The position numbers and the translations under genes were made by a program. The notes under the pieces are model-generated. The model did not search any database and was not told where the DNA came from. It saw only the letters and a list, made by a program, of their open reading frames with translations. Below are positions 1 to 11,048 of a stretch of 11,048 bases of DNA, piece after piece. The stretch spans positions 1-11,048 of the forward strand of contig JBBQPO010000208.1 in assembly GCA_038217285.1 (NCBI GenBank), read 5' to 3'. Within the stretch, counting starts at the first letter, position 1, and every line of letters begins with the position of its first letter. This DNA comes from Chthonomonadales bacterium. Lineage in GTDB: Bacteria; Armatimonadota; Chthonomonadetes; Chthonomonadales; Chthonomonadaceae.

Positions 1-825
1 CGTCCCCCCAACTGGCCCTTCGCCCTTCTCGGCCTCCTGCGCGATGGTCAGGCAGAGCCTCTGGGTCATGTAGGGATGCCCGCCCGTCCAGTAGAGTACG
101 CGCTCCAACAGGGCGGTGCTGCCTCCGGAACCGGTCTGGTCGGGAAGATGGCTGGCCAGGGGAGCGGCTTCACGAGGGGTGAAATCGGTCAGGCGGATAC
201 GCGATCCGATGTTGAAGGGGCTGAGGCGCACGTCGCTGATAAGGTCGGCGGGAGAGGCGACGCCGAGCAGACAGAAGGTGAGGCGTTCGTAGAGCGGGTC
301 TTCGGCGCGGCGATTGTAGCAGGCGCGGATGCCGCCGAAGAACTCGTCGGTGGAAAACGGCAGTCCCTTCACCGCGTCGATCTCATCGATGAAGACGACC
401 AGTCGGCCCGGCTCTCCGGCCTTCTCACAGGCCGCAATCGCAGGCAGCACGACCTCGTGCAAGGCTTCCATCCAGCGCTGCAAGGGGCCAAGCTCTTTGT
501 GGTCGCGCCAGAAGGCGGAGATCGGTGTCAGCAAGTTCAGGGTAACGGCCATGCGCCGCAGCATCCCGAAGTACCACTGCTCGAGGCTGATATGCTGCCC
601 GACCGCCGTCAGGTCCAGCACACAGACGGCGGTGGAGGCGCTTCGGAGTTCCTGTGCCGTCCGCACCATAAGCGAGGATTTGCCCATCTGTCGCGTGTTG
701 AGGACATAGCAGAATTCACCGCGCAGCAGGCTCGACACGAGTTCGCTGTCGGCCTCGCGCACCACGTAGGAGGAGGCGTGGAGAGGCAGTGTCCCCCCGG
801 TGAAATAAAACGGCTCGTCAGACAT
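1..825 (-). CDS. AAA_35 (AAA-like, STAND-class) NTPase domain protein; N-terminal 275 aa, 3' end beyond the window
   Basis: Not in the ORF track because no stop falls in the window. Manual translation from ATG at 825: MSDEPFYFTGGTLPLHASSYVVREADSELVSSLLRGEFCYVLNTRQMGKSSLMVR...LVVFIDEIDAVKGLPFSTDEFFGGIRACYNRRAEDPLYERLTFCLLGVASPADLISDVRLSPFNIG...LYWTGGHPYMTQRLC. It has Walker A (NTRQMGKS), Walker B (VVFIDEID), the SPFNIG motif and the STAND GxP motif (GGHPY). The frame is open to base 1 and starts 36 bp after the stop of the upstream gene. Confidence 0.93.
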   Translation of the reverse strand, partial: MSDEPFYFTGGTLPLHASSYVVREADSELVSSLLRGEFCYVLNTRQMGKSSLMVRTAQELRSASTAVCVLDLTAVGQHISLEQWYFGMLRRMAVTLNLLTPISAFWRDHKELGPLQRWMEALHEVVLPAIAACEKAGEPGRLVVFIDEIDAVKGLPFSTDEFFGGIRACYNRRAEDPLYERLTFCLLGVASPADLISDVRLSPFNIGSRIRLTDFTPREAAPLASHLPDQTGSGGSTALLERVLYWTGGHPYMTQRLCLTIAQEAEKGEGPVGGT

Positions 826-861
826 GCTGGTCTCGTTTCTGCGGAGGCGGTATTCGACGTG

Positions 862-3177
862 TCAGGGCAGACGGTGGGAAAGGTAGGTAGAGTAGATACG
901 GCAGCGAAAGCCAATGGAGGCACCCCATTCGCCGGCGAGCACACCGGCGCTGCGCAGTCGGTAGAAGCTCTCGGGCGTTGGGCACGGTCGCCCATTCAGC
1001 ATCGCGCGGACGATCTGTGTCAGCGCCTCGTCCTGCACCAGGGAGGTGAGAAGGCGGCGCAGGTGATCCCCGAACGCGCCTTCGTCTCGATCAGCCTGCA
1101 TCTCCAGCGCGTCCAGCGTCATTCCGCCCACGGCCAGGGCGTCGAGCGCTCGCCGGGTCAGATAGGGCTGTCCGCCAATGAGTGCATAGAGGCGTTCCAG
1201 CGCTGCGCGGTCTCGCAGCGGACTGCCGCAGCGCCGGTTCAACTCGGAGACCTCCTCGATCTTGAAGTCGTGGAGCACCAGATGAGTACCGACGTTGAAC
1301 GGAGACTGATTGAGGTCGGAGACGAAGAGGTGCGCTTCGGTTGCATAGGCGATGGCGAGGGTGACGCGGCTCCAGGGGCCTCCCGGTTCCAGCGATCGTT
1401 CATTGTACCACGCCCGGAACAGGCCGAAGATCTCGCTGCCGAAATCACAGGTGAAGAGGCGATCCACCTCGTCCAGCGCCCAGACGAGCGGCCCGTCGAA
1501 GCTGCCGAGTACCTGTTCGCACAGAAATAGCTCCATGTTCAGGTTCGCGCCCATATCGGGATCCCACGCCTCTTTGCCGGGCGGCGGCAGTCCGGCCTGT
1601 CGCGCGATGGTGATCGCGAGGGCGTATAGGAAGGTATCGGGCGACTCCATCTGCGCCCGGTTGAGCTTTTGCAGATCGGTACGCACGACTTTTGCCCCGC
1701 GCTGCCGCGCTGCCGCCAGGCTGCGGGCGAGGAGCGAGGTCTTGCCCATCTGCCGCGCGCCCTTGACGAGGACGATGCTCTGCTGGTCGGCAAGCGCCCG
1801 CTGAAAAATCCGGTCGGTGGGCCGCTCGATGTAGTACGGGGAGTCGACGGGCATGCCGCCGCCGATGGCTTCGATGCGATGCGGCGGCGCGGGAAGGGCC
1901 GGAGGCTCCAGCAGAGACTTCAGGACTGCCGCAACGAGGGCCGGGTTGTCCTGCTCGCTGCTCCACTGCAAGTGCTGGAGGGGATTGAGGATGTCGGCCA
2001 TCGCGGTTGTCGGCGGGAGAGGCGCAGTGTAGCGGACGCGAATGGGCAGCAGCATGGGCAGGCCGAACTGCGCCTGCGCGGCGTTGTGCGCCGTTTCGAT
2101 CTCGTAGTCGAGCATCTCGCTCTGGACGGCGGTTTCCGAGAGCAGAGGGACGACCGCATAAGAGTGCCGGATCTGGCGTTCGATCTCTTTAGCCCACGGC
2201 ATTCCCGCGCTCACATTGCGGTCGATGAAAACGGTATAGCCTGCGTGCGCCAGTTCTCGCTCCAGCAGGCGCATCACGGTCTCGTCGGGCTGTAGGTCGC
2301 GTTTGTAGAGAATCGCCACCTGTTTTCCATGGGAAGTTGCAGGGAAAGGAGGTGCAGGAGCTGGAACCTCCAGCAGAGAGGCTCCAGACGTCTGGGGGCG
2401 GTTTTCCGGGGGGCGCACGAGAGTGGCAAGCCCTTGCCGCGCCTCGTAATGCAGGCGCGCCATGAGACGCTGGGTCTCCCCTTCAGGCTGTGTTTCGGTG
2501 CCTTCGCGCAGTCGGCGGAGCGATTCGTACGCGTCCTCTGCGGCAGCGTACCGTCCCTGCCGTGCCAGCAGTTCCAGCAGGGCTCGATACCAACTCTCAT
2601 CCCCTGTCGTCACCTGAAGGGCGTGCCGCAGCCAGCTTTCGGCGGGGGAGTAGTTCTGGGTCTCGAGGGCCTCCTGCACCAGGGCGCGCAGGATTCTGTC
2701 AAAGGAGCGCTGACGCCGGGCACGGGCATCGATGGCCCATTTGTCGTTCCAGCCCTCCAGCAGTGGGCCGCGATAGAGCGCTACGGCCTGTGCCCACGCG
2801 GCGCGATCTTCCTGCCGTGCCAACCTATCGAATTCCAGAAAATCGACCTCTGCGCCCTCCAGATTGAAAGCGACGATCCCTTTGCCCCTGGTCTCTATCC
2901 TGCCCGCATCCGGCCCCAGGCTCTTGCGCAGGGTGTAGATCGCCTGTCGCGTGTTCTTAAAGTCGCCGCCGTCCGGATCGCTGTCGTCGATTTCATACGG
3001 CCAAAAGAGCCGCGCCAGGGTGCGATAGGAGACGGGAGCGCCCTGCTCAAGCGCCAGATAGGCCAGCACTCGGACGCCTTCGCGGCGGTTCATGACGGAA
3101 AGCGACTTGTCCCCCTGCCGTACTTGAAGGGAGCCGAAAAAGGTTAGAGCCAGCACCAGCGAGTCCCTTCTCGGCAT
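862..3177 (-). CDS. SARP-type (wHTH + BTAD) transcriptional regulator fused to TIR and AAA_35 STAND NTPase domains, 771 aa
   Basis: aa ~8-105 OmpR/SARP-like wHTH (LTFFGSLQV..VLAYLALEQGAPVSYRTLARLFWP..NTRQAIYTLRKSLG). aa ~111-245 BTAD (VDFLEF..AVALYRGPLLEG..W..DESWYRALLELLARQGRYAAAEDAYE..PEGETQRL). aa ~285-422 TIR_2-like (VAILYKR..GYTVFIDRNVSAGMPWAKEIERQIRHSYAVVPLLSETAVQSEMLDYEI..LLPIRV). aa ~437-771 AAA_35 (GGGMPVDSPYYIER, Walker A GARQMGKT, Walker B LVWALDEVD, SPFNVG, GGQPYL). Confidence 0.93.
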   Translation of the reverse strand: MPRRDSLVLALTFFGSLQVRQGDKSLSVMNRREGVRVLAYLALEQGAPVSYRTLARLFWPYEIDDSDPDGGDFKNTRQAIYTLRKSLGPDAGRIETRGKGIVAFNLEGAEVDFLEFDRLARQEDRAAWAQAVALYRGPLLEGWNDKWAIDARARRQRSFDRILRALVQEALETQNYSPAESWLRHALQVTTGDESWYRALLELLARQGRYAAAEDAYESLRRLREGTETQPEGETQRLMARLHYEARQGLATLVRPPENRPQTSGASLLEVPAPAPPFPATSHGKQVAILYKRDLQPDETVMRLLERELAHAGYTVFIDRNVSAGMPWAKEIERQIRHSYAVVPLLSETAVQSEMLDYEIETAHNAAQAQFGLPMLLPIRVRYTAPLPPTTAMADILNPLQHLQWSSEQDNPALVAAVLKSLLEPPALPAPPHRIEAIGGGMPVDSPYYIERPTDRIFQRALADQQSIVLVKGARQMGKTSLLARSLAAARQRGAKVVRTDLQKLNRAQMESPDTFLYALAITIARQAGLPPPGKEAWDPDMGANLNMELFLCEQVLGSFDGPLVWALDEVDRLFTCDFGSEIFGLFRAWYNERSLEPGGPWSRVTLAIAYATEAHLFVSDLNQSPFNVGTHLVLHDFKIEEVSELNRRCGSPLRDRAALERLYALIGGQPYLTRRALDALAVGGMTLDALEMQADRDEGAFGDHLRRLLTSLVQDEALTQIVRAMLNGRPCPTPESFYRLRSAGVLAGEWGASIGFRCRIYSTYLSHRLP

Positions 3178-3246
3178 AGCGTTTTTATATTATCGAGACT
3201 GTGTTCCGTCTCTTCCATCGCTCGGACCAAGCCAGATTGTGCTTCA

Positions 3247-3252
3247 ATTATA
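3247..3252 (-). promoter_or_regulatory. Candidate sigma70 -10 element (TATAAT) for the SARP-TIR-STAND operon
   Basis: ATTATA on + reads as perfect TATAAT on the minus strand, 69 nt upstream of the ATG at 3177 in an AT-rich patch. No convincing -35. Confidence 0.5.
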
Positions 3253-3332
3253 CCTGAATGTAAACGCACTTGATATGTACGCCTGTTGCAGCCGCTCACC
3301 AGCCTTCTAAATTCCACACTGCCCCTCCTGAA

Positions 3333-3507
3333 TGACGCAAACAGCCGGTTCTTTGACGCTGGAACCGCGAAAAATGACGCCAGTGCTTGACAAAACGCTG
3401 CCTTCCTGAAAATACAGGCTGACGCTCTTTTCTGCTCCGAATCCGACCGCCGAATCTTTGACGCTGGACCGCTGAACTCTGACGCAAATTCGTGCATCGC
3501 TGACGCA
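3333..3507 (+). repeat. Phased direct-repeat array of TGACGC boxes (putative activator operator)
   Basis: TGACGC starts at 3333, 3354, 3375, 3420, 3459, 3480 and 3501, all in the same orientation. Spacings are 21, 21, (84 = 4x21 from 3375 to 3459), 21, 21. A 14-bp exact duplication TCTTTGACGCTGGA lies at 3350-3363 and 3455-3468 (105 = 5x21 apart). Confidence 0.85.
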
Positions 3508-3515
3508 CAGTGACC

Positions 3516-3521
3516 TATACT
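3516..3521 (+). promoter_or_regulatory. Candidate -10 element (TATACT) for the PEP-CTERM gene, with no recognisable -35
   Basis: TATACT matches TATAAT at 5/6 positions and lies 8 nt after the last TGACGCA heptamer (3501-3507). The -35 position (~3493-3498, TGCATC) is a poor match, as expected for an activator-dependent promoter. Confidence 0.55.
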
Positions 3522-3640
3522 TTCCCTGGATCAACCCAATTACATTAAGAGATCCAGGCATTCCGTTCCGGACACAATTTACCCTCTGCAAAGGAGGGAT
3601 CGAACGTGTCGGGGAATGAAGCCAGGAAAGGTGTTCGCCT

Positions 3641-4615
3641 GTGAAAATCAACAACCGTTACCTGCACTCCGTGTATCGCTCCAAAGCCGCTGTGGTAGGG
3701 AGCGGTCGTACCCTCCTGGGCGTGGCTCTGGCTTTCACGCTCAGTGCCCAAGTTCGATCCCAGAGACTCTACGTCGCAGATTACAACACTAACACGATCG
3801 TCAAGTTCAACAGCAGCGGAGTCGGAACGCAGTTCAATGTCAGCGGGAGTCTGAGTGGACCGCAATTCTTGGCTTTTGATACTCTGGGGAATCTTTACGT
3901 CACAAACAGGACCTCGAACACAATCGAAAGATTCCCAAGTTCCGGGGCGGGAACGCAGTTCAATGTCAGCGGAACTCTGAATCAACCAGAAGGTATGGCT
4001 TTCGATTCTGCCGGTAATCTCTACGTCGCAAGCTCCGCCGATAACAACATCCTAAAGTTCACCACCGGTGGGGTGGGATCGGTGTTCAATACCACCGGGA
4101 CAGCAGTGAGTAATCCTCGCGGTCTAGCATTCGACTCTGCCGGCAATCTCTTGGTCGCAAGCGCCAGCAATAACACTATCGTAAAGTACACCACGGGCGG
4201 TGTGGGATCGGTATTCAATACCAGCGGGCCGGCTTTGAGTGAACCCAACGGTCTGGCTTTCGATTCCTCCGGCAATCTCTACGTCTCAAACTACGGCAAT
4301 AGCACCATCGAAAAGTACACCGCCGCCGGGGTGGGTTCGGCGTTCACTACCAGCGGGACAGCAGTGAGTAGCCCGGAAGGTCTGGCTTTCGATGCTTCCG
4401 GCAATCTCTACGTCGCCAACTCCGGCACTGGCACCATCGGAAAGTACACCGCCGCCGGGGTGGGAACGACGTACAATACCAACGGGAATGTGAATGGCGC
4501 CACTGGCATTGCTTTCGCACCGGCGACGCCCGAACCGGGCAGCGTCGCACTGCTCACCGCCGTGAGCCTCACTGGCCTCTCCGCAGTGATCCGCAGGCGC
4601 CGCAAACGCGCCTGA
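3641..4615 (+). CDS. Secreted NHL-type repeat six-bladed beta-propeller protein with C-terminal PEP-CTERM sorting signal, 324 aa
   Basis: GTG start preceded by GGAAAGGTG. Basic n-region plus hydrophobic signal peptide (LLGVALAFTLSAQVRS). 42-43-aa repeats PxGLAFDxxGNLYVxN/S..TIxKY/F. C-terminal TPEPGSVALLTAVSLTGLSAVIRRRRKRA (PEP motif at ~4529-4537, TM helix, basic tail) is a canonical exosortase substrate. Confidence 0.93.
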   Translation: MKINNRYLHSVYRSKAAVVGSGRTLLGVALAFTLSAQVRSQRLYVADYNTNTIVKFNSSGVGTQFNVSGSLSGPQFLAFDTLGNLYVTNRTSNTIERFPSSGAGTQFNVSGTLNQPEGMAFDSAGNLYVASSADNNILKFTTGGVGSVFNTTGTAVSNPRGLAFDSAGNLLVASASNNTIVKYTTGGVGSVFNTSGPALSEPNGLAFDSSGNLYVSNYGNSTIEKYTAAGVGSAFTTSGTAVSSPEGLAFDASGNLYVANSGTGTIGKYTAAGVGTTYNTNGNVNGATGIAFAPATPEPGSVALLTAVSLTGLSAVIRRRRKRA

Positions 4616-4748: not shown

Positions 4749-6194
4749 ATGTTTATGTCTCTCCTCAATACCATGACTTCCCTCTGGAATAGACCTTCGG
4801 TCCGTCCGCACCATTCGAGCGCGGTTCTTTCTGCCCCTCATCCAGTCGGGAAGATCGCCGCGACCATCGCCACGGCGCTGAATCCAGCCCGTGTCCCGGT
4901 TCGAAAGCGAACGAAGCAAGGGACCTCCCCCGGAAACAGGCCACGTCCCGCCTCCGGCCAGTCGCCCACGCCTGCCCGTCGAAAGCGCAAGATCCGCCAC
5001 GATGTTGTGAGAATGACCTTCTGTGGTTTCTGTGAAGCGCCCCTCCAGATCGGTAGCCCCTGTACCCGGTGTCGCTCTCTGAGCCACGGGTTGTTTCCTG
5101 GGAAGAAACTGTGGCTGAGGATAAAGAGTTTTGGAACGGCACTCGCCCATAGGCGTGCATCCGCCCGACGTGGGGAGAGAATGGATTGTCCCCGTTGTTA
5201 CGGCAGCCTCAAAGCGGGAGCCAGACAATGTAGGCGTTGTCGGTGGAAAGCGGTTTCGGAGACGCCGATACACCTACCTCGACGCAGATTCCTCTCGATC
5301 TTGTGTCGCAAGGCGCAGACGGACGAGCAGGCGTTCTGCCCGAACTGCACCGCTTCCCTCGCCAGGAGGGCAACCCGGTGCAAACACTGTCATTGGACGC
5401 TCCGCCCTTCCCTGCTTCGTCGCCTGACGCTTCCCCGCCTACGTCCGGCAACAAAGGTGCCTCTCTGCGTCCATTGTGCCTGGCCGGTCCGGTCGCGGAC
5501 AAGTCTCTCGTTTCGCTGCCTCTGTGGGCAGCGTACGCGCTCTCGGGCAATCGACTGCACTGCCTGCGGCTCTCCCCTCGGCGCAGGAAAGATCGCCTGC
5601 TCCTATTGCGGAGAGGAGAGACCCCGCCGGGAGGCGCGTCGGGAGTATGCCCTGGCCGCCTGCCGTCAGGTGGGCCAGGACCTCAAGCGGGTCTGGGCGG
5701 CTCTGCTGCCTCGCCGATCTTCCCGCCCCGGTTGCATGCATTGCGGGGCGCAGGACAAGATGCGAGCGGGCGTATGTTGGGAGTGCGAGGAGCCAACTCC
5801 CCGTCGACTGAGCCTGTTCGAACCCCTGAAGCGGTGGCAGCAGGCGCGCCGCATCGCTCGGACAAGCCTGGAGGCCTGCACGCGGGAATGCCCGGACTGC
5901 AATACGTCTCTACTCCGGCGCGCGCGGCTCTGTCTGGTTTGCGGCTGGCGGCGGGGCGGAGCCAAACGACCGAAGGGGCGATTCCAGTGGAATCCGCTGC
6001 GCGTACGTATGTCTTCCTGCCCCAATTGTAGCGCCGCTTTCCCGACATTCCGGCGTCGCTGTGACCAGTGCCACTGGGTCCACTCTCCCGTGGAATACTG
6101 GCGACACACCTCCAAGCTTCTCCCGACAGCCCTGACGCTTACGGTGGCCGGTCTGATGTGGCTTCTGGTGTGGCTCATGGTAACATTTTTATAA
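4749..6194 (+). CDS. Arg-rich multi-zinc-ribbon (DZR-like) protein with C-terminal transmembrane anchor, up to 481 aa (start uncertain)
   Basis: 15 CxxC motifs plus one CxC, mostly paired as CxxC-x10-CxxC (CPRC..CRRCRW, CPNC..CKHCHW, CTAC..CSYC, CMHC..CWEC, CPDC..CLVCGW, CPNC..CDQCHW). Hydrophobic terminal helix LLPTALTLTVAGLMWLLVWLMVTFL. The regular Cys spacing argues this is the real frame among the overlapping ORFs. Confidence 0.8.
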   Translation: MFMSLLNTMTSLWNRPSVRPHHSSAVLSAPHPVGKIAATIATALNPARVPVRKRTKQGTSPGNRPRPASGQSPTPARRKRKIRHDVVRMTFCGFCEAPLQIGSPCTRCRSLSHGLFPGKKLWLRIKSFGTALAHRRASARRGERMDCPRCYGSLKAGARQCRRCRWKAVSETPIHLPRRRFLSILCRKAQTDEQAFCPNCTASLARRATRCKHCHWTLRPSLLRRLTLPRLRPATKVPLCVHCAWPVRSRTSLSFRCLCGQRTRSRAIDCTACGSPLGAGKIACSYCGEERPRREARREYALAACRQVGQDLKRVWAALLPRRSSRPGCMHCGAQDKMRAGVCWECEEPTPRRLSLFEPLKRWQQARRIARTSLEACTRECPDCNTSLLRRARLCLVCGWRRGGAKRPKGRFQWNPLRVRMSSCPNCSAAFPTFRRRCDQCHWVHSPVEYWRHTSKLLPTALTLTVAGLMWLLVWLMVTFL

Positions 6195-6267: not shown

Positions 6268-7245
6268 ATGAATCTGTTTACTCCCATGCTATGGCATCTG
6301 CTGTTCTCTCTCTCGATTACCGTGATGACGTGGGGGCAGGCCGTGAACTGTCTGACCCACGGACGCCGAGCACGCCGCGAGTTTTTGGAGCGGGAGGCGT
6401 TGCATCAGTACCGCCTGCGTGTGGAACGCGGAGAATCGGTGCATGAGCCGATCAATGTGCTGGTTCCGCGCAAAGCGCGCTGGAGAGTCGCGTTCTCCAT
6501 GGGCGCGACTTTCTGCTGGTTAGGGCTGGGCTGCTGGAGTCTGGTGGGCCTGGTGACGGCCTTCCATACCAGTGTGGCTGCCTTTCACGCAGGACAGTTC
6601 CACGCGGATCATGACTATATTCGTGCCTCCACAGCGTACCGAACGGCACTGGCTGCGGATCCGGTCGCGAATAGCCTGCATACACATCTGGAGACAACGC
6701 TTACGCTGGAGGAGTCCAACGACGGAGAGTATGGGTACGCCAAACGCATGGTACGCAATCATCCAGGGGACTGGAAACCGCACGACACACTGGCAAGCGT
6801 GTTGGTGGCACGTGATGATCTCGCGGGAGCGGCGGTGGAGTATCGGCAGGCCATCCAACTGGATCCGAATAATCCGGCCTCGCACAATAACCTGGGCAAC
6901 GTCCTCCGGAAGTTGGGCCGACTGGACGATGCCGAGCAGGAGGTGCGGCGCACTCTGGAGTTAGACTCCAGTTCCGGAGCCGCCCATGCCAATCTGGCAG
7001 ACATCTGCTATATGAATCACAAGCTCACCCTGGCCATTTCGGAGTATCGGATTGCCATCACTCTGGATCCCAAGCGCGGAACGCCGTACTTTAACCTGGC
7101 GCTGGCATTGCGGTCCACCGGACGCTCGGCAGAAAGTCTCGCCGTCATCGACCAACTCCTCAAGGAATCCAAACACGATCCGGAGATGTCGGACGTGGCT
7201 GTCCGAGCTGCTACCATTCGAACCCAGTGGACACACCGTATGTGA
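6268..7245 (+). CDS. Membrane-anchored tetratricopeptide-repeat (TPR) protein, 325 aa
   Basis: RBS AAGGAG/AAGGA before the ATG. Two hydrophobic N-terminal segments (aa ~3-28 and ~73-98). At least four 34-aa TPRs (HDTLASVL..YRQAIQLDP; SHNNLGNVL..RRTLELDS; AHANLADI..YRIAITLDP; PYFNLALAL..). Confidence 0.9.
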   Translation: MNLFTPMLWHLLFSLSITVMTWGQAVNCLTHGRRARREFLEREALHQYRLRVERGESVHEPINVLVPRKARWRVAFSMGATFCWLGLGCWSLVGLVTAFHTSVAAFHAGQFHADHDYIRASTAYRTALAADPVANSLHTHLETTLTLEESNDGEYGYAKRMVRNHPGDWKPHDTLASVLVARDDLAGAAVEYRQAIQLDPNNPASHNNLGNVLRKLGRLDDAEQEVRRTLELDSSSGAAHANLADICYMNHKLTLAISEYRIAITLDPKRGTPYFNLALALRSTGRSAESLAVIDQLLKESKHDPEMSDVAVRAATIRTQWTHRM

Positions 7246-7365
7246 CCGGTTCATCGTTCATGCTGCCTTCGCGCCGTATGACGTCGTGTCCGTCTCCCTG
7301 CTCACCGCCTTGGCGCTCGGCACGACTCCGCTTTCTCACCCGCTGCGCAATTTGCCTCCATCCTT

Positions 7366-7635
7366 CCGCAGACCAAGCACAGTTCTTTCCATACCACCTT
7401 CAACATTCTGGAGGGACTGTCGGTGGCCGCCGACGCGGGCATCATCTCGAAGAGTGTTTTCCGTGACAGTGAAGTGCGGGCGTTAGGCAACTCCCAAGAA
7501 TTACCGCTCCACATTCGGACCCCTTCTGACCCCAGTTGCGGCAGAATTGTGGAGCAATAATAGTTTGGCGGCTCCTTAGAGTTCATGCTGGCCCACCGGA
7601 TGTACCGTTCAGATCGAACCGGCGAGGTCATCCAC
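7366..7635 (+). pseudogene. Internal remnant of a squalene-cyclase/prenyltransferase-like (alpha/alpha barrel) hypothetical protein gene, interrupted by an insertion
   Basis: Removing 7486-7578 yields the continuous frame PQTKHSSFHTTFNILEGLSVAADAGIISKSVFRDSEVRAL|EFMLAHRMYRSDRTGEVIH. From memory, this resembles the SSFHTTxxVLEGL...EFLLxHRLxRSxRTGEVI signature of a widespread family often annotated 'squalene cyclase'. The N- and C-terminal parts appear to be missing. Confidence 0.7.
7486..7575. mobile_element. 90-bp MITE-like non-autonomous insertion with TTA target-site duplication
   Basis: Flanked by TTA at 7483-7485 and 7576-7578 (TTAG if read as 4 bp). Ends are GG...CC. Imperfect terminal inverted repeats: left GGCAACTCCCAAGAATTACCGCTCCACA, right (reverse complement) GGAGCCGCCAAACTATTATTGCTCCACA. 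Excision restores the host reading frame. Confidence 0.72.
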
Positions 7636-7717
7636 TTCGAAATCAGTGAAGTCGGGCTCGAATCGTCTTTACGAACCACACAGTGGCTCAACTGGTCAGC
7701 GACGAAATTGGGCCATT

Positions 7718-10700
7718 TCAATGGCTGAATAGAGCGTTTGTCTCGGCCAGCAGGAGTTCCATCTCCAGGCGCGGCGCCCAGGCTTCGCTGGTGTCGGCTC
7801 TTTCCTGCGTGGAGCGCAGATAGGCTTCCGCTCGCTGCCGACCTTCCGTCAGGTAGTTCTGAGCCTGTGGATCGTGATGCAGGCGATGGTGCGCCATAGC
7901 GAGGAACAGCAGAGAGTGGATCGTATCCTCTCCGCTTTCGTTGGGTAAAGCCTTTTCGAGCCTCGCAATCGCCTCGACAAAGCGATCGGCATGGTAGAGC
8001 AGGCAGCCGGTCGCGTGCAGGAGGTCGGCGTCGCCGGGATGGGCGACATACGCCTTCTCGCCTTCTACGACCAAGGCATGGAGCGTTTCGGTGGGGCTCT
8101 GGCCTAGGGAGGCGATCTCCAGCAGTTCGGCGAGGTAGCCAGGGTTCGCACTCTGGGAAATCTCACTTCTCATGCGGGCGCAGAGGGCAGCGTAACCGAT
8201 ACGGTCGCCTGCTTTAAGGAGAAGCAGCGCTTCGGGACGCGCGGCGGTCATCCGGGTTTCCAAATGGGGATCGGCGCTGAGGCGGGCGTAGTCGGCAGCG
8301 GCGGCTTGCCAGTGTCCCTGCTCCCGATGGATGTGAGCCGACACCGTGACAGTCTCTCCGGCGCTGCCTCCGTGCTTGACCATCTGCGCGAAGTCCTCGT
8401 GGGCGCGTTCGTCTTGACCGAGGTTGAGAGCCGCGACCCCATGCAGGTACCAGGCGTTTGAGTCGTCCGGGGTCTTGCGGAGGAGGGCATCGGTGGCCAG
8501 AAGCGTCTGCTCCCACTGCTTATGGGCGGCGCTATCGCAGGCGAGTGCGAACCACGAGTCGGCGTCGTCCTGCCCGACCAGCATTGCTGTTCGCATTCGG
8601 TCTTTCTTCTGCCTGGCTACAATCGTCTCTTTCTCCAACGCCAGCGCCACGGTGTAGTTCCGTTGCTCCCGTATATCGTGGGTCCAGTCCGGCTGTTGCT
8701 GAGACGGGGCTGCGAAGTCGGAGGAGTGGTGCGAACGCAGGGTATCCCAGGCTTTGCGCACCTCGGCGAGGCCGACCTCCATCCGATTTCCGTCGGCGTC
8801 GATATGCTGTCCGCACAGCAAGGCGTTCAGTCGGTCGAAATCGGCTTCGGGGCGGCTGTCCGGCGACAGGTCCAGACGCAGAATCCCGTAGCGTGTCCCG
8901 ACGATCAGGCAGCGACTGTCCTGTGTGAAGCGGAACCACTCCAGTTCGGATCGAATGGCGGGTATCAAAGGATCTCCCGAGGCGAGATCCCAAACGCGCA
9001 AGTTTCCTTTGCTGTCGATTACGGCCACTCGATTCCCGTCCGGGCTGAGTTCCTCCGAGCCGTAACTGCCGTCCCTGTTCTCCAACCGTATCCCTATCTG
9101 CATGGGAGGCGAGAGTGGATAACCTGTTTGCGCATTCCAAAGCCGTACCAATCCATCGGTGGTCGAGGTCAGAACGCGGCGCCCATCGCGGCTGAAGTGA
9201 GCGCCCGTGAAGGCCTGGTCCTGCGGCAAGGAGACGACCTGGTGACCGGTGGCAGTGTCGTAGATTCCCTGGCCCTGCGACATGCCTCCTGGCAGTGAGA
9301 GGGGCACGAAGCGAGTGTGATCGCCGCTAAAGCCCGCCGCGCCCGCTGCCATATCCACATCGAGAGTAAGTACACCGGCAGAACTCTTTGACCCCCGTGT
9401 GGGTAGGACGTCCAGCGCTCGCCTGCCTTGGGCGGTGATTGCGGCAGCGGAAGCGACATCGGAGTAGAACTGGATCGATTCAAAGTCCCGGGCGAGCCAC
9501 AGCTTCAGGTCGCTTCCGGCACGCGCCTGGTTCGGGCGGTGCAGGTTTATCTGCGCCCGAAGCCGACCTGAGTGCAGATCCCACAGGAAAGTCTCTTTGT
9601 CGTTTGTCCGTGTGATCAGGAGATGCCGTTCGGGCAGAAACCAGGTCCGCGAGAGGTCCACCGCATGTACCATGAGCGCCCCGAGCGGTCTGGCAGTCGC
9701 CGGATCCCATTCCTGGAGATCGCGCAGTCCTAATTTGATCAGGAGATTGCCGTCGTGAGACGACACGCACGACATCACTTTGCCCGTATAGGCCGGTGGG
9801 CCGACCGCCGCGCCGGTCGCTGTGACGAACGACTGAATGGCTCTCTCCGACGTCAGGACCCAGTAGTGGCGTCCATCCGGGCAGAGTTCCGTCTGGATGG
9901 CGTTCGCGGGCAGCGGGTGAGACGGGGTGAGCGGCTTGCCTGTGCGAGTATTATAAACGCGAAAGGCATCGTGCGAGACGATTCCGAGCGTTCGTTCGTC
10001 CTCGCTTGGCCTCACTGCGCTTGCCGGGACGCGCAGCAGAGGGACGCCCCGAACCGAGTCTACCAGAACTACCTCCTGGCGTAGATTGGAAAAGAGAAGG
10101 GTCCGGCTCGCCTCCAGAAGAGGCGTCGTGGAGAGCCCGGCGTCGTCCTGGTAAACCGACACGGGCAACGCTTTCGGTCGGAAACTCCAGAGCCGTGTGG
10201 TATGGTCTACGCCCGCCGTGAGCAGGCGCTGCCCTGAAGAATCGAAGCTGGCCGCCACCACCTCGCCCGCGTGGTGTACGGTCGGAGACGACAATGCGCC
10301 GGACGTGGCATCCCGGATCGATACGGAGCCATCGATACAGGCGAACAGCAGACGACTGCCGTCCGGACTGAACTGTGCGTCACGGGTCTCCGCAGACAGT
10401 GCGATGGAGGGAGAGAGCGCCTCTCCCGTCCGCGTAGAATAGACACACGCCCGCACCCCTTCCTGCCTGCCTTGTATCTGACGCGATCTGTTGATGATGA
10501 GCGCCTGCTTGCCGTCGAGACTGAGGCGGGCGGCGGCGGGCATCTCGGGGGAAAAGATCCGGATCGGCTGCCCGGTCCGCACGTCGAACAGCCCGGCTCG
10601 ATTGTAGTGGGTTAGCGCATCGGTGCCGTCGGTCAGCAGGGACTTCCCATCGGGAGTGAACTCGATGCTGTGCGCGTTCCAGCAGCGGTCGATGGTAGAG

Positions 10701-11048
10701 CAGATCGTTCCGGTACCGGCGTCCAGAACCAGGGAACGCCATCTCCAGATGGCCAACGCTAAATGTCTGCCGTCGGGGCTGAACGCCGCGTCTTCGACGG
10801 TGATCCCTGCGATCCGGAACGTAAACTGCGTTTTGCCGGAGAGGAGATCCCAGATCGCAACCTGATCCCCTGCATAGACCGCGAGATGATGGCTATCGGG
10901 ACTCCAGAGGGGAACGCAGTTGCCCACCGTGACGCTCTTCAGAGCAAGCTGCCCAGCAGGGACCAGCAGACGTCCTGTTCGGGCGTCGGCCACCTGCGCC
11001 GTTCCGTCCAGCCAGGTCGTCGCCAGATAGCGGCCATTCGGGCTGAAG
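7718..11048 (-). CDS. Large WD40-repeat protein with C-terminal TPR region (>1100 aa, 5' end beyond the window)
   Basis: The frame stays open upstream of the ORF-track start at 10993 (FSPNGRYLATTWLDGTAQVADARTG), so the true start is outside the window. Many WD40 blades (AAFSPDGRHLA, AQFSPDGSRLL, SFDSSGQRLLTAGVDHTTRLW, HFSRDGRRVLTSTTDGLVRLWNAQTG) span ~8870-11048. TPR-like helices (DSNAWYLHGVAALNLGQDERAHEDF, GCLLYHADRFVEAIARLEKAL, LLFLAMAHHRL) span ~7718-8570. Confidence 0.92.
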   Translation of the reverse strand, partial: FSPNGRYLATTWLDGTAQVADARTGRLLVPAGQLALKSVTVGNCVPLWSPDSHHLAVYAGDQVAIWDLLSGKTQFTFRIAGITVEDAAFSPDGRHLALAIWRWRSLVLDAGTGTICSTIDRCWNAHSIEFTPDGKSLLTDGTDALTHYNRAGLFDVRTGQPIRIFSPEMPAAARLSLDGKQALIINRSRQIQGRQEGVRACVYSTRTGEALSPSIALSAETRDAQFSPDGSRLLFACIDGSVSIRDATSGALSSPTVHHAGEVVAASFDSSGQRLLTAGVDHTTRLWSFRPKALPVSVYQDDAGLSTTPLLEASRTLLFSNLRQEVVLVDSVRGVPLLRVPASAVRPSEDERTLGIVSHDAFRVYNTRTGKPLTPSHPLPANAIQTELCPDGRHYWVLTSERAIQSFVTATGAAVGPPAYTGKVMSCVSSHDGNLLIKLGLRDLQEWDPATARPLGALMVHAVDLSRTWFLPERHLLITRTNDKETFLWDLHSGRLRAQINLHRPNQARAGSDLKLWLARDFESIQFYSDVASAAAITAQGRRALDVLPTRGSKSSAGVLTLDVDMAAGAAGFSGDHTRFVPLSLPGGMSQGQGIYDTATGHQVVSLPQDQAFTGAHFSRDGRRVLTSTTDGLVRLWNAQTGYPLSPPMQIGIRLENRDGSYGSEELSPDGNRVAVIDSKGNLRVWDLASGDPLIPAIRSELEWFRFTQDSRCLIVGTRYGILRLDLSPDSRPEADFDRLNALLCGQHIDADGNRMEVGLAEVRKAWDTLRSHHSSDFAAPSQQQPDWTHDIREQRNYTVALALEKETIVARQKKDRMRTAMLVGQDDADSWFALACDSAAHKQWEQTLLATDALLRKTPDDSNAWYLHGVAALNLGQDERAHEDFAQMVKHGGSAGETVTVSAHIHREQGHWQAAAADYARLSADPHLETRMTAARPEALLLLKAGDRIGYAALCARMRSEISQSANPGYLAELLEIASLGQSPTETLHALVVEGEKAYVAHPGDADLLHATGCLLYHADRFVEAIARLEKALPNESGEDTIHSLLFLAMAHHRLHHDPQAQNYLTEGRQRAEAYLRSTQERADTSEAWAPRLEMELLLAETNALFSH

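Follow-up and report, generated by a model that had tools for sequence, protein, structure and literature searches.

In bacteria, NLR-like (STAND) proteins have been described as phage sensors of the cytoplasm or, as with AfsR and MalT, as activators made of a single chain. MalT of Escherichia coli is an oligomerizing NTPase that responds to its signal by bringing multiple DNA-binding heads to repeated boxes within a divergent regulatory region. AfsR belongs to the large regulators of the SARP (Streptomyces antibiotic regulatory protein) family; it works as an activator in the form of a SARP dimer and is modulated in cis by its NOD and TPR domains (PMC10936776). According to the same source, SARP target promoters carry direct repeats at a distance of 11 or 22 bp, the 3' one lying 8 bp from the -10 element. 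The control of surface proteins with a PEP-CTERM sorting signal is described for Proteobacteria, in which such genes share upstream sites for the PrsK/PrsR sigma-54 system (PMC1569441). Here, we describe a locus of the phylum Armatimonadota. The window, that is, the whole stretch of DNA analyzed, is the entire 11,048-bp contig JBBQPO010000208.1 (C208) of a Chthonomonadales bacterium (assembly GCA_038217285.1; 6.21 Mb, 459 contigs, 95% complete). It encodes a regulator, A1, with a SARP head, a TIR domain, and an AAA_35 NTPase, followed by the gene of a partner, B1, with an AAA_35 NTPase of its own; in the opposite direction, a PEP-CTERM gene lies behind an array of TGACGC boxes (Table 1). SARP-type activation of the PEP-CTERM gene through these boxes is well supported by comparison and is considered likely. 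The whole is best read, with somewhat more doubt, as a split, membrane-linked, NLR-like two-protein switch with its own operator and a dedicated target, and not as a phage defence system.

On the + strand of the divergent region, TGACGC occurs exactly seven times, at 3333, 3354, 3375, 3420, 3459, 3480, and 3501, with spacings of 21, 21, 45, 39, 21, and 21 bp. The number of this hexamer in the window as a whole is ordinary (15 versus 9.5 ± 2.7 in shuffled sequences; 8 of 200 shuffles reach 15). The genome carries it at a rate of 0.40 per kb per strand, and the array is the sole cluster of four or more boxes in 6.21 Mb; the Poisson probability of at least seven boxes in 174 bp is approximately 1.5e-12. 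The last box is followed by a TATACT hexamer. At the -35 position, 17 nt upstream of TATACT, the sequence is TGCATC, which matches TTGACA at two of six bases, and a scan for sigma-70 promoters detected no two-hexamer promoter on the + strand of the control region. When compared with the published SARP geometry, the spacing is 21 bp, and the hexamer with a 9-nt gap is equal to a heptamer with a gap of 8. The proximal triplet fits the SARP promoter rule, and binding of the SARP head to it is predicted. Of four DNA sequencing runs, one (X4) gave a 185-nt contig that spans positions 3199-3383 with three changes, none of which is in the first three boxes.

Two other elements of this region should be mentioned. 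The CTTGACA sequence behind the distal triplet was considered as a -35 element and was ruled out, the paralogous locus having no conserved -10 element after it. A perfect 8-bp stem, CCTGGATC ... GATCCAGG, is located at 3525-3558, 4 nt past the -10 element and at the extreme 5' end of the predicted target mRNA. This stem is kept in the orthologous locus of the congener with a different loop, and is absent from the paralogous cassette.

Four loci encoding SARP-TIR-AAA_35 proteins were readable: the window, contig C156 of the same genome, and two contigs of a congeneric genome (G001). The cassette on C156, the target of which is likewise an NHL/PEP-CTERM gene, is a paralogue of that in the window, and G001 has orthologues of both. 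In all four, boxes are located at offsets of 0, 21, 42, 125/126, 146/147, and 167/168, forming a 3 + 3 arrangement of six. Of the 24 boxes at these conserved positions, 23 have the sequence TGACG; the remaining one is TAACG. Elsewhere in the intergenic DNA, the loci have drifted apart, with a mean column identity of 72% between paralogous loci. The -35 position again matches TTGACA at only one or two of six bases in each locus. Furthermore, each of the four combines the boxes and their 9-nt gap to TATACT with a target of the PEP-CTERM type and an AAA_35 gene downstream. The original prediction, made from the letters of the window alone, had described two AAA_35 proteins, the first with wHTH-BTAD (winged helix-turn-helix and BTAD) and TIR domains, and a phased array of seven same-strand boxes that ends at a -10 element lacking a -35 element, in front of a gene for a surface-sorted beta-propeller protein; it had also proposed that homologues be searched for the same combination of genes and boxes. 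The domains, the promoter, the target, and the co-occurrence were all borne out, and a SARP head with its own phased operator at the divergent promoter agrees with the conservation, the exclusivity, and the geometry of the boxes. As for the number of boxes, the window has seven, but the one at 3420 has no counterpart in the three related loci, which keep only the six of the 3 + 3 arrangement.

The boxes are also largely exclusive to these cassettes. Across the genome, TGACG triplets with 15-17-nt gaps are limited to four sites, two in each of its two cassettes, and a box followed by N10-TATA[AC]T occurs five times, two of these being the cassette promoters. Among 186 loci (1.36 Mb), triplets were found at the cognate loci and, in addition, only at L161 and L043, upstream of other SARP genes. 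At these two loci (L161, 2740-2830; L043, 2136-2182), three TGACG boxes 20-23 bp apart are located upstream of the SARP gene and point away from it. One of the two regulators is of the NB-ARC type, from a related family member, and L161 faces a gene for a secreted-repeat protein.

This distribution bears on the idea that the boxes are bound by another factor, for example a global PEP-CTERM regulator, or are left over, as neutral sequence, from a local duplication that has nothing to do with A. The PrsK/PrsR precedent lends this idea some credit, as does the array itself, the two halves of which are an imperfect duplication with 105-bp spacing and 71% identity. However, the triplets are confined to the two cassettes encoding A proteins and are absent from the other PEP-CTERM open reading frames (ORFs) of the genome, of which there are about 58-64, and the boxes are invariant while their flanks diverge. 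No match to the sigma-54 -24/-12 motif (three or fewer mismatches; 41 matches in the window) was found on the + strand at 3291-3733. A is the sole DNA-binding protein in the cassettes. We consider binding by another factor, or a neutral origin of the array, to be very improbable.

A further argument is given by the TIR-less relatives of A (L119, identical to L009; L012; L014; L015; and L018). All five have three or four related boxes with 9-22-bp spacing, and in each case the array stops about 9 nt short of TATACT, TATAAT, or a -10-like hexamer. The box sequences themselves are TAACGC, GTGACC/G, TCACG, and GTCACGC. This means that the sequence of the box varies across relatives while its position relative to the -10 element is kept, as would be expected of a cognate operator and not of a site for an unrelated factor. 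The recognition-helix motif TRQA(I/V)..LR is common to L119, L012, L014, and the four A proteins (L015 and L018 were left out of this alignment). The extended 3 + 3 array was seen solely with TIR-bearing proteins. A PEP-CTERM gene is faced by three of the five TIR-less relatives.

In A1, Pfam assigns BTAD to residues 123-242 (E-value 1.2e-10), TIR_2 to 287-406 (2e-15), and AAA_35 to 440-767 (1.1e-73), and did not detect the winged helix at E ≤ 0.01. A search of A1 with phmmer against the sequences of the Protein Data Bank (PDB) gave TLR1 alone, at an E-value of 0.44; the SARP match needed a profile search. With a profile built from 48 family sequences, the solved SARP domains of AfsR (8hvr, 1.5e-11, profile positions 5-233) and EmbR (2fez, 1.9e-8) were matched, in both cases starting at profile position 4-5. 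The AlphaFold2 (AF2) model of A1 has a mean confidence (pLDDT) of 88.2, with flexible linkers at 255-281 and 430-432, and superposes on the SARP chains of AfsR (Foldseek, TMt 0.58-0.60). By profile and model, the N-terminal region of A1 is a SARP, consisting of a wHTH and a BTAD. The NTPase in the same model is made up of an alpha/beta module, a helical module, and a small beta-hairpin module. Lys479 of Walker A and Asp569-Glu570 of Walker B are invariant in all 48 aligned relatives. For the NTPase regions alone of both A and B, the best fold matches are the archaeal ATPases 2qen (TMt 0.63) and 2fna, followed at similar E-values by ORC/Cdc6, CED-4, Avs, MalT, NOD2, and RuvB, and "STAND-like" seems a reasonable, if provisional, description of the modeled AAA_35 modules. 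A2, the corresponding regulator on C156, is 67-82% identical to A1, depending on the domain.

The leader of A1 contains the inverted repeat GAGAC-N8-GTCTC. The sequence GAGACTGT...CCGTCTC recurs in three of the four loci; in the fourth (C452 of G001), the left arm is GGACTGT, one base short. This repeat could be an autoregulatory site or a leader hairpin.

The target ORF contains NHL repeats (7.3e-31) and a C-terminal tail, ATPEPGSVALL...RRRRKRA, that scores 17.9 bits with TIGR02595 (cut-off 16). The targets of the other three loci also pass this cut-off, at 19.3, 18.5, and 21.6 bits; one of the four targets has a different, non-NHL body with the same sorting tail. An exosortase is encoded on contig C17 (PF09721, 191.6 bits). 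At 3595-3644, a strong Shine-Dalgarno-like sequence, AAAGGAGGG, precedes a 12-codon frame that starts with GTG and the TGA of which overlaps the GTG of the PEP-CTERM ORF (GTGA). Because this upstream frame is continuous with the gene in the congener, the true start codon of the target is uncertain.

The partner, B, seems to supply what A lacks. The AAA_35 of B1 is recognized by Pfam (8.2e-24) and is 28% identical to that of A1; its Walker residues Lys49, Asp147, and Glu148 are invariant among relatives. Full-length B proteins consist of AAA_35, one membrane helix, a coiled coil with a helix of about 100 residues, WD40 propellers, and TPRs. A strongly hydrophobic helix follows AAA_35 in four of five long B proteins. 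In the AF2 model of B (pLDDT 85.9), helices 376-418 and 423-525 are followed by the propeller. Basic residues are located on the N-terminal side of the hydrophobic helix, which would place the NTPase in the cytoplasm and the propellers outside. B is thus probably a single-pass membrane protein with WD40 and TPR predicted to be outside the cell. Since the sensor domains would lie there, the cue is probably extracytoplasmic. The sensor repeats are found on B alone: A is without sensor repeats, and B is without an output domain.

By sequence comparison, the SARP-TIR-AAA_35 protein is a member of a large modular family and not an isolated case. The TIR-AAA_35 core is about 55% identical across the family and is found alone or behind SARP, kinase, or cyclase modules; modules precede it in hundreds of proteins. 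Among the best 120 matches in the protein database, 38 have BTAD, TIR, and AAA_35 (including the window protein), 38 have kinase families, and at least 15 have a cyclase family. Members with TIR-AAA_35 only are 471-564 residues long (for example, P0067, P0049, and P0087). At least 5540 of 8000 candidates scored are B-type relatives at E ≤ 1e-20. Among species representatives the fusion is uncommon: full-length SARP-TIR-AAA_35 proteins were found in two of 101 relatives, and scans of genome contigs and of 401 genomes of the phylum added the congener only. No published description of the SARP-TIR-AAA_35 or B family was found in the literature searched, which covered the articles without their supplementary files.

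A is paired with B in most of the loci surveyed. The window's own genome encodes five A-B pairs and a sixth A-type gene on a 2-kb contig; the head of these A-type proteins is SARP with TIR, SARP alone, wHTH alone, or a cyclase fragment together with TIR. The four A-type genes outside the two cassettes are on C120, C260, C2, and C456. The first three have a B gene directly downstream, and C456, the 2-kb contig, ends before any B gene could appear. The proteins encoded opposite the A-type genes on C260 and C2 have a signal peptide but lack a PEP-CTERM tail. Among 25 distinct loci with SARP-(TIR)-AAA_35 proteins, a B-type gene is directly downstream in 16, divergent upstream in four, and not seen in five, four of which have less than 500 bp of downstream sequence.

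A complex was predicted for the paralogous cognate pair A2 (430-768) and B2 (1-388). The score was 0.53 (runs of 0.53, 0.53, and 0.44), and that of the best of three controls was 0.00; the runs share at least 88% of their contacts, and the partner pLDDT is at least 83. The mark set for this score is reached by 58 of 80 solved complexes and by two of 110 mismatched pairs, and those that reach it with a score of 0.60 or less comprise seven of the 80 solved complexes and both mismatches. A score of 0.53 falls in the weak band. It should also be noted that A2 and B2 are paralogous NTPase modules, and their resemblance to solved AAA+/STAND oligomers may raise the score. The original prediction had proposed that the downstream AAA_35 protein is the sensor; the architecture of B supports this, and the complex prediction does so weakly.

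It may also be that A is an ordinary large SARP acting alone, as a dimer or on a short array, with B an independent paralogue or a negative regulator and TIR a spacer. AfsR, with its dimer and its cis-acting NOD and TPR, is a precedent for this. L119 has boxes and a PEP-CTERM target, with no B gene within 4.8 kb downstream, and both the weak complex prediction and the absence of the putative catalytic Glu of TIR in some relatives (see below) speak for it. However, the complementary A/B pairing is kept in 20 of 21 judgeable loci and in all five pairs of the genome. The Walker motifs are intact in both proteins, and the controls in the complex prediction scored 0.00. A lone SARP is considered improbable, and control of A by B through NTPase contacts is regarded as plausible, on balance the better explanation.

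The role of the TIR domain is less clear. A TIR-only profile matched 7uxr (1.5e-5), Cat1 (9.9e-5), AbTIR (8g83, 3.1e-4), and SARM1 (3.2e-3). Glu359 of A1 aligns with the Glu of the W-x-x-x-E / YEL motif (...W-T-E-Y-E-L...) in 7uxr and 7uwg, which we take to be the catalytic residue of TIR NADases; the Trp of the motif is replaced by Met in A1. All 16 genomic relatives, and 42 of the 48 database relatives, have the equivalent Glu. In the other six, all of which bear a SARP head, it is Gln, Leu, or Gly, so that an enzymatic output of TIR is not universal. The TIR domain may be a second output, consuming NAD or making a signal, or may be an element of assembly; the present data do not decide between these.

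These properties of TIR are also the basis for regarding the pair as an anti-phage or conflict system of the Avs or TIR-STAND kind, which would detect infection and deplete NAD+ or signal arrest through TIR, the SARP head being autoregulatory or a side feature. The position of TIR, N-terminal to a NOD-like NTPase, recalls plant TNLs, and the best Foldseek match is RPP1 (7dfv_B, 2.5e-9), with further matches to Avs3 (2.9e-7) and Avs4 (4.3e-6). The putative catalytic Glu is retained in A1, and the existence of family members with TIR-AAA_35 only means that TIR can be the sole output. However, the matches with PADLOC are partial and weak for A (30 bits for TIR and 26.6 bits for the P-loop), and there is none for B. 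The sensors of B are predicted to be outside the membrane, where phage proteins are not met, which makes a phage-defence role unlikely. The alternative N-terminal modules in the family are signaling domains (kinase, cyclase, BTAD), five A-B pairs and a sixth A-type gene coexist in one genome, every SARP version comes with a private, conserved operator and a target that encodes a surface protein, and the Glu is missing in six of 48 relatives. Taken together, defence is given a low probability.

For the two-protein switch, the following course of events is proposed. B would reside in the cytoplasmic membrane with AAA_35 inside, and its coiled-coil stalk, WD40, and TPRs outside would sense an envelope or external cue. 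Activated B would engage the sensor-less, paralogous AAA_35 of A and gather several A protomers, a step to which the complex prediction lends weak support. The SARP heads of A would then occupy the same-strand TGACGC boxes, two helical turns apart. The protomers closest to the promoter would span the missing -35 element and recruit RNA polymerase in the manner of AfsR, and so turn on the divergent PEP-CTERM/NHL gene; the geometry, exclusivity, and conservation of the boxes are the grounds for proposing this step. The distal triplet, in phase with the proximal one 84 bp away, might serve cooperative or looped binding or autoregulation of the A-B operon, which is speculative. TIR, clustered by the same assembly, may provide an NAD-consuming or signal-making second output, or form an assembly collar.

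Several points weigh against this picture. The four readable loci represent two paralogous lineages in two congeneric genomes, that is, at most two to four related observations, and the fusion is found in just two of 401 genomes of the phylum (E ≤ 1e-55). A metagenome scan with an alignment of the SARP head gave, among the matches listed, generic SARP relatives of 38% identity or less; none of the SARP-TIR-AAA_35 database proteins (42-79% identical) was among them. To these are added the loss of Glu in six of 48 relatives, the TIR-less L119 without a B gene in 4.8 kb, and the complex score in the weak band. The conserved CTTGACA is unexplained. The distal triplet is located about 150-195 bp upstream of the inferred start, beyond direct contact with polymerase. 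A membrane-tethered complex must either bring the DNA to the membrane or release A. Finally, the start of transcription, induction, and binding are all read from the sequence.

Table 1. Coordinates of the features of the window, from left to right
Feature	Position	Strand	Remarks
Gene B1, partial (first 275 aa)	1..825	-	AAA_35, Walker A GKS; cut by contig end
Gene A1, 771 aa	862..3177	-	wHTH ~aa 1-110, BTAD ~112-254, linker, TIR 283-425, AAA_35 440-767
TIR-coding part of A1 (aa 287-406)	1960..2319	-	Pfam TIR_2
Inverted repeat GAGAC-N8-GTCTC, leader of A1	3195..3212		Between A1 start codon and candidate -10
TATAAT, candidate -10 of regulator operon	3247..3252	-	Sequence reading; TATAAC in paralogous locus
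Distal triplet (3333, 3354, 3375), 21-bp steps	3333..3380	+	In register in 4/4 loci
CTTGACA	3386..3392	+	5 nt after distal triplet; kept in 4/4 loci
Seventh box	3420..3425	+	Without counterpart in other three loci; outside 21-bp register
Proximal triplet (3459, 3480, 3501), 21-bp steps	3459..3506	+	84 bp (4 x 21) after distal triplet
TATACT, -10 element	3516..3521	+	9 nt after last box; same hexamer and gap in 4/4 loci
Target gene	3641..4615	+	Signal peptide, NHL beta-propeller, PEP-CTERM sorting tail
B gene of paralogous cassette, C-terminal WD40/TPR part	7718..11047	-	Sister system (contig C156); Pfam WD40/TPR

The gap between A1 and B1 is 36 nt, and a single operon of the two is plausible from the sequence. 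At the other end of the window, the ORF 7718-11047 can be aligned over 980 aa, at 92% identity, with residues 654-1633 of the congener's B2 ORF (L037, in a stop-to-stop reading). Contig C156 breaks off at residue 627 of its own B gene (L001, 12909-14789), and about 27 codons between it and the window are unassembled. Since the right end of the window matches the remainder of B2 where C156 stops, the two contigs are almost certainly neighbours, and the two cassettes would form a single locus of about 26 kb. The order is PEP-CTERM <- array -> A2 B2 ... <- TPR <- double zinc ribbon <- PEP-CTERM <- array -> A1 B1. A circular contig, suggested by the B-type genes at both ends, was ruled out because the reading frames do not connect and the right end resembles the congener's B2 (92% identity) rather than B1. 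A collapse of the left end with C156 in the assembly was also ruled out, the nucleotide identity being just 82%.

The N-terminal AAA_35 of B1 is 84% identical to the paralogue B2 and only 51% identical to the supposed orthologue in the congener (L036); at the DNA level, B1 and C156 are 82% identical. Either gene conversion between the cassettes or a replacement in the congener may account for this.

Downstream of the target, the frame at 4749-6194 (+) encodes a protein of 481 aa that has a double zinc ribbon and ends in a hydrophobic C-terminus. Its counterpart in the congener (80% across 142 aa) likewise adjoins the target. The next gene of the window, at 6268-7245 (+), encodes a TPR protein, the match of which to PrsT (64 bits, cut-off 312) is TPR similarity only. 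The 139-aa ORF at 7302-7721 (-) has no Pfam match and has the look of a dispersed repeat more than of a gene; about 40 aa of it recur at 65-82% identity on at least seven further contigs of this genome. No Rfam family reached its gathering score anywhere in the window.

The significance of the locus lies in the way its parts are divided. The functions of sensor and output are split over two paralogous NTPases, with the sensor predicted to face outward and the output chain carrying both a transcription-factor head and TIR. With a predicted regulon of just two promoters, an operator known to base resolution, and one surface protein as the target, the locus is unusually testable. It could show whether a TIR domain serves ordinary signaling rather than cell death, and it offers a non-proteobacterial answer to the question of how PEP-CTERM genes are controlled. 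A more far-reaching version may be imagined, a transmembrane "resistosome for signalling" in which B, with its sensor facing outward, nucleates a ring or filament of SARP-TIR-NTPase chains at the membrane, six heads dock cooperatively on the 3 + 3 operator in combination with a nucleotide signal made by TIR, and the same core serves kinase or cyclase heads throughout soil phyla. We regard this version as unlikely; if true, it would be an unrecognized class of signal transduction beside one- and two-component systems.

AfsR and the large SARPs are among the nearest known systems. The N-terminal SARP followed by a NOD-like NTPase is common to both (the profile match to 8hvr), and so are same-strand repeats whole helical turns apart, a 3' repeat 8-9 nt from the -10 element, and a poor -35 element. 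The large SARPs, however, have wHTH-BTAD, an NB-ARC-type NOD, and TPR, whereas the NTPase here is AAA_35 with TIR inserted before it. The sensor repeats are not on the same chain but on a second, membrane-anchored, paralogous protein. The operator has six boxes over 174 bp in place of two 11-bp repeats, and the target is a PEP-CTERM surface protein in Armatimonadota, not the antibiotic genes of actinomycetes.

The logic of multiple heads on repeated boxes is that of MalT, to which there is also a similarity of fold (8bob_C, 1.8e-5). MalT differs in its C-terminal LuxR-type head, its cytoplasmic ligand, and its single chain, and it has no TIR and no membrane partner.

The order of TIR and NOD is shared with the plant TIR-NLRs RPP1 and ROQ1, and the division of labour, with one NOD protein for sensing and another for output, is shared with paired sensor/helper NLRs. 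The match to RPP1 (2.5e-9 over 561 columns) has a root-mean-square deviation of 20 Å, which means that the domain arrangement is not superposable. Here there are no leucine-rich repeats, the output has a transcription-factor head, the sensor is predicted to be extracytoplasmic, and the NADase activity is putative. The antiviral STANDs (Avs1-5, bNACHT) are alike in combining a STAND-like NTPase with an effector domain, and Avs3, Avs4, and EfAvs5 are matched in fold; they are set apart from the present system by the lack of a family-level PADLOC match, and by its two genes, membrane sensor, private operator, and target gene.

PrsK/PrsR/PrsT resembles the locus in having a dedicated transmembrane sensor and an activator, and single-gene PEP-CTERM operons with long upstream regions (PMC1569441). 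That system uses a histidine kinase and an NtrC-type sigma-54 activator, whereas a SARP-NTPase and no sigma-54 motif are found here. The locus is a new combination of known kinds, the large SARPs and the TIR-NLRs.

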